Part shown: piece by piece, positions 962 to 2,916 of the stretch
Layout of the letters: every line of letters starts with the position of its first letter
How positions within the stretch are numbered: the first letter of the stretch is position 1
IMG/VR virus record: IMGVR_UViG_2547132252_000009
Source of the DNA: a virus
Taxonomy: Duplodnaviria; Heunggongvirae; Uroviricota; Caudoviricetes
DNA: 7,819 bases
Reading direction: 5' to 3' (one strand)
Position numbers and translations under genes: made by a program
Notes under the pieces: model-generated
The model's database searches: none
What the model saw: only the letters and a program-made list of their open reading frames with translations
Told to the model about the DNA's origin: nothing

Positions 962-1708
962 TTACTTCACAACCCTCATATTGCTGACATTTGGACGCCA
1001 GCTATCCCAGTTAAACGTCACCCATCGACCACCGTTCATGGTCATGCGGTCCATAATCCTCTCACCAAGAAGTGTACTCATTGCGGCATGATTCAGGTTT
1101 GTTAACATCCCGACACTGCACAGTGATGCTGTCCGGCGATCAATTATCTGGTGTAATACCACCTGCTCGTTTTTCGTCTCCCGCTGAACGCCTATTTCAT
1201 CCAGGACCAGCAAATCAACACTGCAAAGCTCCTGTAAAAATTTTTCCCCGGATTTGCCGTTGTCGTAGCTGTCATGCAACACGCTCATGACATCAGACAC
1301 GGTGACGATAATCACGCTGCGCCCCTTCGCCATCAGCCGGTTACCCATCGCCGCTGCAAGGTGATTTTTCCCGGTGCCGGTTTTACCGCTGAACACAAAA
1401 TTCGTGCACCCGGTCATCAGTTCGTCAGCTATGGATTTGGCCTGGCTCAGCGCGTATTTTAGCCCGTCGTTCTGCACCTGATAATTCGCAAACGAGCATT
1501 TGCTGTGCAGAGGCTGGATGCCCGAACGATTCAGGATTTTTTCCACCCGCAACTGGTGATTCTGGCGGTTAATCTCCTCGCTGCGTTTTCGTCCTTCAGC
1601 AAGTTGCCATTCCCGCCACTCCTCCACCGTCCGGTACGGTGGAACCGACGCCTGTGGTGCAAGTCTGCGAATACGTTCAAGAACCCCGGCTGCCGCAATG
1701 TTTTTCAT
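962..1708 (-). CDS. DnaC-like replicative helicase loader (AAA+ ATPase), prophage paralog
   Basis: 248 aa; Walker A FSGKTGTGKNHLAAAMGN, Walker B DLLVLDEIG, C-terminal VTFNWDSWR; collinear similarity to E. coli DnaC as I recall it (NRSGI.PLH..CSF.NY, GMLTN.N...M..LLGER.MDRM). Confidence 0.9.
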   Translation of the reverse strand: MKNIAAAGVLERIRRLAPQASVPPYRTVEEWREWQLAEGRKRSEEINRQNHQLRVEKILNRSGIQPLHSKCSFANYQVQNDGLKYALSQAKSIADELMTGCTNFVFSGKTGTGKNHLAAAMGNRLMAKGRSVIIVTVSDVMSVLHDSYDNGKSGEKFLQELCSVDLLVLDEIGVQRETKNEQVVLHQIIDRRTASLCSVGMLTNLNHAAMSTLLGERIMDRMTMNGGRWVTFNWDSWRPNVSNMRVVK

Positions 1709-1714
1709 GCCACA

Positions 1715-2164
1715 TCACCCCCTGAATCCCGGCGGAATTTCGGTATCCGGTTCAGAAATATGATTCACACAACGCTGGTTGTTCGTGCCGCTTACCGGGA
1801 GCAACCAGGGGTTTTCAAAATTCCGGTCCGGCCCAAAAAACGTCGTCGCTCGCTGAACAAATTCCGTTCCCGCTTTCCCGGTCGCCGCCAGGTATCTCGC
1901 GTAACGCCTCACACCATCCAGCATGGTCTCTGGTGGCACCCCCTCGCGCAATCTGGCCTTCCAGGCACTGAAAGCGGATTTCTTCGGGTTTGCCCCAGCA
2001 CGCAACGGGTATTCCCGCCAGACCTGTTCGAACACATCCGGATAATCCACTCGTCCCACAGACTGCCCGGTGCTTTCCGGGACTACCCGATCGGCTTCCC
2101 GCTGAATGGCGGAATCGGCTTCAGGCTGCTGCAGTTGGTGTGATTGCTCCGACCCTGCGGTCAT
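1715..2164 (-). CDS. DnaT-like (primosomal protein I C-terminal domain-like) protein
   Basis: C-terminus VNHISEPDTEIPPGFRG matches the DnaT C-terminus ([17 protein letters not shown]) as I recall it. ATG at 2164-2162 overlaps the upstream TGA (TGATG). Lies immediately upstream of the dnaC-like gene (6-bp gap), mirroring the host dnaT-dnaC operon. The ORF track starts at GTG 2176; the same frame is open upstream to 2341. Confidence 0.7.
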   Translation of the reverse strand: MTAGSEQSHQLQQPEADSAIQREADRVVPESTGQSVGRVDYPDVFEQVWREYPLRAGANPKKSAFSAWKARLREGVPPETMLDGVRRYARYLAATGKAGTEFVQRATTFFGPDRNFENPWLLPVSGTNNQRCVNHISEPDTEIPPGFRG

Positions 2165-2916
2165 CACCTGCTGCACAGCGCCCGAATCGGCTTCCGGTGT
2201 CGTGCCTGCTGGCTGACCAGGATTGACGGTCTGAACATCCCCTGCCTGGTTCGTGGTGTTTTTTTGCCATGAACCATAGTGTTTTTGTCCTGTTCCTGTT
2301 CTTTCTCCTGCTCCTGTTCCTGTTCTTGGCTTCGAAGCCCCTTAAAAGCCCCTTCGAAGCCCCTTACCGAATTTCGGCTATTATTCCGCCTCACATCCAG
2401 ATGGAAATCCGTTTTATATCTGTCGTAAAACACTGACAGAAAAGCGTTTTCAGGTAATGATGCATACTCATTCCTGACACCTGCACAACGGTTATCGCCA
2501 GGCTTCAACGTTTCCCCAACCTGCCAGGCTGCCATTTCATGGACCCAGACCATCTCTGCATCATGGTCATAGCTACAAAAACCAGCTTCAACAGCCCTTT
2601 TAAGCCCCTTTGAAGCCCCTTCCAGACCAAGCCCGGTTTCATGAGCAAGGTATAAAACTGGCAGGTAATACAAACCCAGCATATTTGCGTGAGGGGATGT
2701 CATCAGGTAAAAAGCAACAACTTGCGCTTCTGCACCCGCCTTTCTAAGTTCTCTCCCCGTTTCTCCCAGCCAGAATCGCGGAGAAACTTTTGCGTAATCA
2801 CGCATGGCTACCTCATCTGGTGCCGAACCTTCCTCCGGATATAATCTGTGGTTCCCAATCGACAGAACCAGAGGAGGTTCGACATGTATTTTTTGAAAAG
2901 CCTTTATCAGGCTCAT
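2164..2916 (-). CDS. Putative phage replication initiator (O-like replisome organizer), N-terminal domain plus (EQ)n linker; possibly the 5' part of a frameshifted initiator-DnaT fusion
   Basis: 250-aa ORF with internal repeats GLEGASKGLKRA / GFEGAFKGLRS and an EQEQEQEKEQEQ linker. After the A7 run the tail is arginine-rich and junk-like. Alternative start ATG at 2805 with GAGG 5 nt upstream (MRDYAKV...); ATG at 2916 has no clear SD. Confidence 0.6.
   Translation of the reverse strand: MSLIKAFQKIHVEPPLVLSIGNHRLYPEEGSAPDEVAMRDYAKVSPRFWLGETGRELRKAGAEAQVVAFYLMTSPHANMLGLYYLPVLYLAHETGLGLEGASKGLKRAVEAGFCSYDHDAEMVWVHEMAAWQVGETLKPGDNRCAGVRNEYASLPENAFLSVFYDRYKTDFHLDVRRNNSRNSVRGFEGAFKGLRSQEQEQEQEKEQEQDKNTMVHGKKTPRTRQGMFRPSILVSQQARHRKPIRALCSR
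2285..2366. repeat. Imperfect hexamer repeat (TCCTGT)n at 2285-2326 followed by three tandem 11-bp iteron-like units T(C/A)(G/A)AAGCCCCT at 2332-2364
   Basis: Read directly: tcctgt tcctgt tctttc tcctgc tcctgt tcctgt, then tcgaagcccct taaaagcccct tcgaagcccct, at helical-turn spacing. Confidence 0.7.
2593..2623. repeat. Second cluster of three tandem 10-11 bp AGCCCCTT-type repeats
   Basis: agccctttta agcccctttga agccccttcc; same core as the 2332-2364 cluster, about 260 bp away, inside the initiator ORF. Confidence 0.6.

Follow-up and report, generated by a model that had tools for sequence, protein, structure and literature searches.

A frameshifted lambdoid initiator gene, its DnaT-like tail and a DnaC-type loader in a Qin-like prophage of Escherichia coli

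Does a prophage replicate with its own copy of the host primosome pair dnaT-dnaC? This question is raised by IMG/VR record IMGVR_UViG_2547132252_000009, a 7,819-nucleotide (nt) stretch of viral DNA (hereafter the window, meaning the whole stretch that was analysed), which is the immunity and replication region of a Qin-like lambdoid prophage in Escherichia coli O157:H7-type strains. An earlier note on this DNA had read positions 962-2176 as a dnaT-dnaC-like pair, taking an open reading frame (ORF) at 1715-2164 as a small dnaT-like gene followed by a DnaC paralog. Comparison with relatives indicates that this ORF, of 153 amino acids (aa) when read from its GTG start, is the 3' part of one lambdoid initiator gene and no gene of its own, its resemblance to DnaT being confined to the extreme C-terminus. 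The DnaC-type AAA+ loader, proposed in place of a lambda P-type loader, was borne out.

The split initiator gene and its loader

The two ORFs upstream of the loader gene (Table 1) match successive parts of the same phage protein families. The N-terminal halves of PHROG 1701 (323 aa) and PHROG 3729 (356 aa) correspond to the ORF at 2164-2916 and their C-terminal halves to the 153-aa ORF, with E-values of 4e-84 and 9e-59 for the two initiator halves against PHROG 1701 and an additional match to PHROG 270. A megablast search of complete E. coli genomes returned ~100% identity in many O157:H7-type strains, most matches being 1 base longer than the window. Strain TR01 carries a single 1,092-nt coding sequence (CDS; 363 aa, WP_001205823.1) where the window has two ORFs, and the counterpart in FORC_044 is annotated by PGAP as a 'frameshifted DNA-binding protein'; the sole difference in a three-way alignment is GGC-A7-CACC (window and FORC_044) versus GGC-A8-CACC (TR01). 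Using a 67/68-nt probe spanning the run, the exact A8 form was found in 436 and the exact A7 form in 1 (FORC_044) of 5,426 complete E. coli genomes. At least 1000 contigs carry the intact 363-aa protein, as against 4 with the exact 153-aa fragment and 12 with the exact 213-aa fragment, the contigs with split products being named from DEC draft assemblies. The 1808 initiator homologs are mostly single proteins of 300-370 aa. Because A8 is the norm and the relatives are intact, the split represents a rare lesion in a homopolymer, whether it arose by sporadic mutation or by faulty sequencing, and the gene proper runs from 2805 to 1715. The module as written in the window is probably defective, and in practice its 'small dnaT-like gene' is apt to mislead annotators.

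Both the PHROG families and the place downstream of cro-like and cII-like genes identify the gene as a lambdoid initiator, although its body family is without any Pfam or NCBIfam model. Pfam scans of both ORFs and the intact homologs to E<=10 gave no DnaT and no Phg_2220_C match, and a profile search of viral contigs with the central-domain alignment returned near-identical E. coli contigs only. An AlphaFold2 (AF2) model of the intact initiator, built with 47 homologs and in agreement with a model of the 153-aa fragment, comprises an N-terminal helical/winged-helix region (residues ~8-135), a disordered linker of ~120 residues (139-258), a three-helix domain (~260-340) with a predicted local distance difference test (pLDDT) score of 80-95, and a flexible tail. 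The N-terminal domain, with helices and a beta hairpin at 77-88, is modelled with moderate confidence (pLDDT about 65-85); Foldseek searches of the initiator model against the PDB returned weak MarR/ArsR winged-helix matches (E 0.3-1), and the same C-terminal half carries unrelated N-terminal domains in different homologs. Among predicted structures, the helical domain matched phage replication/replisome-organizer proteins, followed by DUF1376, DnaD and Phg_2220_C (E 2e-8 to 6e-4).

Five exact copies of AAGGGGCTT lie within the initiator CDS in two clusters phased by 11 base pairs (bp), and the motif occurs at the same gene positions in homologs of Serratia, Klebsiella and Shigella phage 75/02. 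In phage 75/02, cluster 2 is inverted (AAGCCCCTT), indicating that the constraint acts on the DNA rather than on the encoded peptide. Together with the A-rich tract and the A-run, these iterons may form an origin inside the initiator gene, as in lambda O. The prophage operon context and the iterons argue for a presumed origin-specific mode of initiation rather than PriA/PriB-dependent restart.

The loader gene begins at ATG 1708, 6 nt past the initiator stop codon (TGA, 1715-1717). Its product exceeds the cut-off of NCBIfam PRK12377 (506 bits, cut-off 389) and remains under that of the NCBIfam DnaC equivalog (295 bits, cut-off 357), the latter marking it as a paralog rather than an orthologous DnaC; it also matches Pfam IstB_IS21 and PHROG 50 'DnaC-like helicase loader'. 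Identity to K-12 DnaC is 47% over 243 aa, the full length including the N-terminal region, where loader residues 1-60 align with DnaC 1-58, the DnaB-binding region of DnaC and by prediction that of the loader. The Walker A motif GKTGTGKN (1364-1387, residues 108-115) aligns with DnaC K112, the Walker B motif LLVLDE (1196-1213, residues 166-171) with D169/E170, and sensor I N204 and the arginine finger R221 with N203 and R220, while DnaC A84, altered to Tyr in dnaC1331, is also kept. By family cut-off and catalytic motifs, the loader belongs to the YdaV-like subfamily of the DnaC/IstB clade, and the earlier description of a full-length DnaC paralog with intact Walker A and B motifs, 6 nt downstream, is confirmed.

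The DnaT-like tail and its links to loader type

The 153-aa ORF ends ...VNHISEPDTEIPPGFRG (...NNQRCVNHISEPDTEIPPGFRG), with QRCVNHISEPDTEIPPGFRG as the last residues before the stop codon. Aligned with the E. coli DnaT C-terminus by BLASTP, 15 of 25 residues are identical (E 3e-8); NCBIfam DnaT PRK02854 matches ORF residues 130-153 at model positions 156-179 of 179 (E 5.9e-4), and the PDB DnaT chains 6aep, 2ru8 and 9zbt are matched solely over their last 22-24 residues. As these three lines agree, the likeness of the tail is real and no chance match. Upstream of the tail the resemblance stops. The whole-protein PRK02854 score is 19.5 bits, far under the equivalog cut-off of 201, and phmmer and profile searches against PDB sequences yielded the tail (E 0.02-0.07) or low-complexity noise only. 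Comparison of the initiator family with a DnaT alignment by hhalign gave a probability of 95.5% (E 1.6e-8) but spanned DnaT 107-179 only; after splitting, the tail by itself scored 98% (E 3e-14), against 33% over 29 columns for the domain before it. PF17948, the DnaT domain, found nothing in the fragment or the intact homologs to E<=10, with control scores of 75 bits for DnaT and 49 bits for another tail-bearing phage initiator. Profile-profile alignment detected no similarity to the DnaT N-terminal oligomerisation domain or acidic PriB-binding linker, the region upstream of the C-terminal domain in the intact initiator being a winged helix and disordered linker, unlike DnaT. The fragment gave no fold match to DnaT, including its three-helix domain (DnaT 84-153), which binds single-stranded DNA (ssDNA).

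The shared stretch therefore comprises the last 20-25 residues, outside the crystallised DNA-binding region DnaT 84-153. The DnaT C-terminal signature that had first drawn attention to the ORF is genuine, and profile searches are positive for DnaC-type families throughout and for DnaT over these residues; the suggested likeness to the DnaT C-terminal ssDNA-binding domain is absent by PF17948, hhalign and fold alike. What survives of the proposed dnaT-dnaC-like pair is a tail-bearing gene directly 5' of a dnaC-like gene, as in the host; a separate dnaT-like gene, or paralog of DnaT, in the prophage is not supported.

The tail motif RDxNx[IV]SxPDxxIPxGFRG, found at the end of 103 of the 120 best initiator homologs, is also the C-terminus of host DnaT, and KRDxNxxSEPDxxIPPGFRG ends nearly all of the 120 DnaT homologs listed, the full-length ones among them (a few are truncated). 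Its last codons, AGGGGG (1718-1723), double as the Shine-Dalgarno sequence of the dnaC-like gene, as do the last two tail codons AGR GGR across 153 distinct tail DNAs. In the same set, Ser(-13) is encoded by both TCN and AGY codons and Arg by six codons. Since neither Ser nor Arg is confined to one codon family, selection acts on the tail peptide, and the idea that GFRG is kept solely as the dnaC Shine-Dalgarno sequence was rejected.

The tail is a portable module carried by at least five unrelated initiator bodies, namely HTH_36/lambda-O-like, DUF1376/YdaU-like, Phage_rep_O, Phg_2220_C and true PF17948 proteins. In the lambda-O-like body, homology to O extends up to residue ~277, and the DnaT-like tail replaces the last 22 residues of O. 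Furthermore, the same N-terminal and central domains occur with two classes of tail, the short DnaT-like one (class A) and an acidic one of ~75 residues (...PLDxEEWxQT..., class B). The gene following the DnaT-like tail is IstB/DnaC-like (P0027 and the window), whereas that following the acidic tail is Phage_lambda_P in all four readable cases (P0077, P0106, P0111 and P0112), showing a link of tail type to loader type. The class B contexts were obtained by exact look-up of individual proteins, a scan of viral contigs with one class B tail sequence having given no match. In addition, phages whose initiator body is unrelated become homologous to the window DNA exactly at the first tail codon, 62 nt before the stop codon ends, and this homology runs through the entire dnaC-like gene at 97.7% identity; against Rac/YdaU-type modules it begins at -36. 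This boundary implies that the tail and the loader gene are exchanged as one unit.

Viral contigs and species-representative genomes were scanned for DNA fitting a degenerate pattern of the tail and its stop codon, the resulting figures being samples for frequency and taxonomic range. Viral contigs contained at least 120 tail-bearing ORFs, 118 with a scorable downstream ORF; among the matches listed, a DnaC-like ORF followed within ~6 nt in 72 of the 118, and the other 46 had no DnaC-like gene in the stored locus, ren-like or winged-helix genes coming next. Of the 18 sequence clusters formed by the viral tail bearers listed, 15 have DnaC-followed members. Among the matches listed from the genomes, DnaT was followed by dnaC in 74 of 74, and the 46 other ORFs had a dnaC-like gene next in 33, something else in 11 and an unscorable neighbour in 2. 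Thus, a dnaC-like gene directly follows ~61-75% of the listed non-DnaT tail-bearing phage or prophage initiators, and 107 of 118 listed genome matches when host dnaT is included. All listed genome matches are from Enterobacterales, barring one metagenome-assembled contig whose tail is identical to that of an E. coli phage.

Tail-bearing initiators that lack a phage dnaC and are followed by ren-like genes come from Enterobacterales genome records or from viral contigs of unresolved host. Many E. coli phages (types of loci L088, L094 and L102, and L148/L293) encode an identical tail-bearing initiator with no dnaC paralog and a ren-like gene next. Such 'initiator-solo' modules presumably use host DnaC, and their phages offer natural controls for testing the tail hypothesis. 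At locus L113/L288, a phage or prophage initiator precedes a dnaC-like gene, and the homology of its C-terminal ~90 residues to DnaT takes in the complete C-terminal domain as well as the tail (PF17948, 49 bits). This initiator is a candidate for an evolutionary step linking phage modules to the dnaT-dnaC operon of the host.

The partner of the tail: a proposed role and its rivals

As a whole, the locus is probably best explained as a frameshifted lambdoid initiator gene with a putative internal origin, whose DnaT-like tail would be a loader-docking motif. The initiator would bind its own iterons, and its flexible tail would be a short linear motif to which a DnaC-type loader complexed with host DnaB docks, the loader being the co-encoded paralog or, in phages without one, host DnaC. 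The helicase would thereby be brought to the origin. This role would parallel that of the lambda O C-terminus towards P, and by extension the DnaT tail may be a contact with DnaB-DnaC. That DnaC or its paralog is the direct partner of the tail is about an even call. The wider proposal, in which the ~20-residue tail of DnaT and of at least five unrelated enterobacterial phage initiator families docks a DnaC-type loader (DnaB6-DnaC6), is offered tentatively and is somewhat less likely. If true, the helicase is recruited by the unmodelled DnaT tail, instead of or in addition to the N-terminal domain, and the dnaT-dnaC operon would be what is left, after domestication, of a phage module that exchanges 'initiator tail + loader'.

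Several considerations weigh against a loader-docking tail. Its partner is deduced from gene linkage and mosaic boundaries, and the putative origin from repeat anatomy. Because the tail and the dnaC-like gene lie only 6 nt apart, their co-inheritance could partly reflect physical linkage, and the conserved tail-coding sequence is itself likely a crossover point. A phage dnaC is missing next to 46 of the 118 viral and 11 of the 44 genomic initiators listed, so that the partner may just as well be DnaB or some other protein of the host. Both tail scans sample the frequencies and the taxonomic range. In DnaT, moreover, the tail has a modest role in ssDNA affinity and cooperativity, with a dissociation constant (Kd) of 27 uM for residues 84-153 versus 9.9 uM for 84-179 (PMC4132743), and the recruiter of DnaB/DnaC preferred in a 2026 cryo-electron microscopy paper is the N-terminal domain of DnaT (PMC13377028).

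The alternative that survives best, which we regard as rather unlikely, is that the tail binds host DnaB directly, its linkage to dnaC being indirect since DnaB comes as a DnaB-DnaC complex. This would suit the many tail-bearing initiators without a phage dnaC, and DnaA and PriC are known DnaB contacts (PMC5778457). However, the tail is swapped when the loader is lambda P (4/4), which would be needless for a DnaB-binding tail, and the tail and the dnaC-like gene travel as one mosaic unit; the former objection is weakened if P masks the DnaB site.

It is less probable still that the tail merely helps ssDNA binding or oligomerisation, steadying an initiator or DnaT filament on unwound DNA without a specific protein partner. 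DnaT lacking residues 154-179 does have a ~2.7-fold higher Kd for dT30 and a lower Hill coefficient (PMC4132743), and Arg, Asn and Phe are among the conserved tail residues, but such a role leaves both the one-to-one exchange of tail and loader and the mosaic boundary shared with dnaC unexplained, and the tail is borne by bodies with quite different C-terminal domains.

Very little speaks for 1715-2164 as an autonomous prophage DnaT paralog that, together with the DnaC paralog, copies the host dnaT-dnaC primosome operon. The DnaT-like tail directly 5' of a dnaC-like gene fits that idea, and GenBank submitters labelled the gene of related phages 'primosomal protein I'. Nevertheless, the ORF owes its existence to a 1-nt homopolymer deletion seen in 1 of ~437 matching complete genomes, relatives mostly encode one protein of 300-370 aa, no DnaT N-terminal domain, linker, PF17948 match or DnaT fold match was found, and the NCBIfam DnaT score (19.5 bits) is an order below the cut-off of 201.

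Least credible is a biologically meaningful split, through programmed or transcriptional slippage at the A-run or as a two-polypeptide initiator: runs of 7-8 A can slip and this one falls in the linker joining two domains, but the in-frame A8 allele is overwhelmingly usual, split products come mainly from draft assemblies (DEC strains), neither ATG 2164 nor GTG 2176 is preceded by a good ribosome-binding site, and parting origin binding from loader recruitment should destroy function.

Prophage context and comparison with known systems

On the minus strand, the genes run in the order cro-like, cII-like, initiator, dnaC-like loader and DUF1627 (Table 1). An ORF at 7045-7341 (+) contains a DicB cell-division-inhibitor domain (NCBIfam, 121.7 bits), and ydfA/ydfB and hokD lie close to the dicB-type ORF in reference genomes, which together assign the element to the Qin-like prophages. 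Directly 3' of the repressor gene, the segment 4765-5243 (+) encodes the antitoxin RelB (63 aa) together with a toxin of RelE/ParE type (95 aa). Between the cII-like gene and the initiator, two ORFs overlap in antisense by ~317 nt: a plus-strand ORF at 2884-3339, called by RefSeq/NCBIfam as 'ECs1072 family' (105.7 bits, cut-off 70), and a minus-strand ORF at 3023-3583, which runs in the direction of the operon and matches PHROG 8304 with 398 bits. A tblastn search of the phage collection with the product of the latter gave no match.

Table 1. Positions of the replication module and neighbouring features in the window
Feature	Position	Strand	Basis or remark
DnaC-type AAA+ helicase-loader paralog, YdaV-like, 248 aa	962..1708	-	PRK12377, IstB_IS21, PHROG 50, DnaC alignment
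Replication initiator/replisome-organizer gene, 363 aa when intact	1715..2805	-	PHROG 1701 and 3729, TR01 alignment, RefSeq
ORF fragment, 153 aa from GTG 2176 (ATG 2164 in the earlier note)	1715-2176	-	
Upstream ORF fragment	2164-2916	-	N-terminal part of initiator
DnaT-like C-terminal tail, QRCVNHISEPDTEIPPGFRG	1718..1777	-	BLASTP, NCBIfam, profile-profile comparison
Three-helix domain (YPDVFEQVW...FFGPDRNFENPW), replisome-organizer/DnaD-like type	1805..2047	-	
Poly-A run and frameshift site; A7 in the window, A8 in nearly all relatives	2259..2265	-	
(CAGGAA)n A-rich stretch	2284-2327	-	after iteron cluster 2, before poly-A run
Iteron cluster 2, AAGGGGCTT x3, 11-bp period	2335..2365	-	gene positions 441/452/463
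N-terminal domain, predicted winged helix-turn-helix, presumed origin-binding	2401..2805	-	AF2
Iteron cluster 1, AAGGGGCTT x2-3, 11-bp period	2591..2621	-	gene positions 185/196
cII-like/YdaT gene	3546-3971	-	same rightward operon, upstream of initiator
cro-like gene	3955-4227	-	same rightward operon, upstream of initiator
cro-like and cII-like block	3546..4227	-	operon genes 5' of initiator
Repressor gene, divergent	4336-4737	+	

Downstream of the loader, a loxP-like 34-bp site at 447-480 (ATAACTTCGTATAATGTATGCTATACGAAGTCAT) is identical at 33 of 34 positions, with a chance expectation of none. It is flanked by direct repeats at 261-450 and 485-672 (190 nt, 98.4% identical), both part of the DUF1627 gene, whose product is cut to 157 aa in the window versus 256 aa in TR01 and FORC_044. 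The lox/DUF1627 junction is present in no complete E. coli genome, the lox segment on its own matches engineered K-12 strains and P1-type plasmids, and the junction resembles an engineered scar or an assembly/insertion artefact. Despite the common A7 allele, the window is not identical to FORC_044, because a second deletion of 1 nt relative to both TR01 and FORC_044 occurs at 533 in the duplicated DUF1627 segment; one substitution against FORC_044 lies at 1461, in the dnaC paralog.

An initiator with a DnaC-type loader is a known kind of module and an ordinary genome feature in hundreds of sequenced E. coli genomes; the value of this locus is a comparative lead on the function of the DnaT tail. 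Among its closest parallels is lambda O/P. Both modules are placed after cro/cII, have iterons and an A-rich tract inside the initiator gene (the lambda ori iterons being located inside O), combine an N-terminal DNA-binding domain, predicted in the window, with a flexible linker and a C-terminal end specific for the loader of the next gene, and are followed by a ren-like or other accessory gene. They differ in that the window loader is a DnaC/IstB AAA+ protein and not P, and that the loader-specific element is a 20-aa DnaT-like tail. No pairwise sequence similarity to lambda O was detected for the window initiator or for the class A and class B initiators.

Rac ydaU-ydaV and gp15-gp16 of the Shigella Stx phage 75/02 share the two-gene layout, the DnaT-like tail and the YdaV-type loader. 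The DUF1376/YdaU-type protein of Rac/75/02-like modules ends ...VNTVSLPDSAIPPGFRG, and DNA homology to the window runs at 78-79% through the dnaC-like gene, whereas the initiator body of the window belongs to another family, without a Pfam or NCBIfam model, and is frameshifted. The phage 75/02 pair was labelled by its submitters 'primosomal protein I' and 'DNA replication protein'. DopC, described by Brezellec et al. in 2017, joins an O-like N-terminus to the DnaT C-terminal motif (PDB 2ru8) (PMC5509034). DopC/DopE resembles the present module in that DnaT C-terminal elements circulate among phage-derived initiators (PMC5509034), but it is a domesticated chromosomal pair in other bacterial orders, DopC is accompanied by the P-like DopE, and no iterons were found in DopC.

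E. coli DnaT and the dnaT-dnaC operon share with the window the terminal motif RDxNxxSEPDxxIPPGFRG and the position directly upstream of a DnaC or DnaC-like gene, at a distance of 2 nt in the host versus 6 nt here. The window protein lacks the N-terminal oligomerisation domain, the acidic PriB-binding linker and a detectable PF17948 domain, and DnaT acts in a fork-structure- and PriA-dependent manner, whereas the window initiator is presumed from its iterons to be origin-specific. How DnaT recruits DnaB/DnaC is stated as unknown in reviews and in papers of 2024-2026 (PMC13377028, PMC5778457, PMC11087952), a DnaT-DnaC interaction was described as undocumented in a 2017 review (PMC5778457), and the 2026 preprimosome structures contain modelled DnaT 84-153 and a fitted N-terminal domain, leaving residues 154-179 unmodelled (PMC13377028). 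In the literature, no paper was found that gives these residues a function or connects loader type with the tail. The very end of DnaT, absent from all structures, thus behaves in phages as a portable loader-specific module, which is swapped together with dnaC and replaced when the loader is lambda P, a pattern that provides a precise and cheaply testable hypothesis for how the preprimosome (PriA-PriB-DnaT) contacts DnaB-DnaC.

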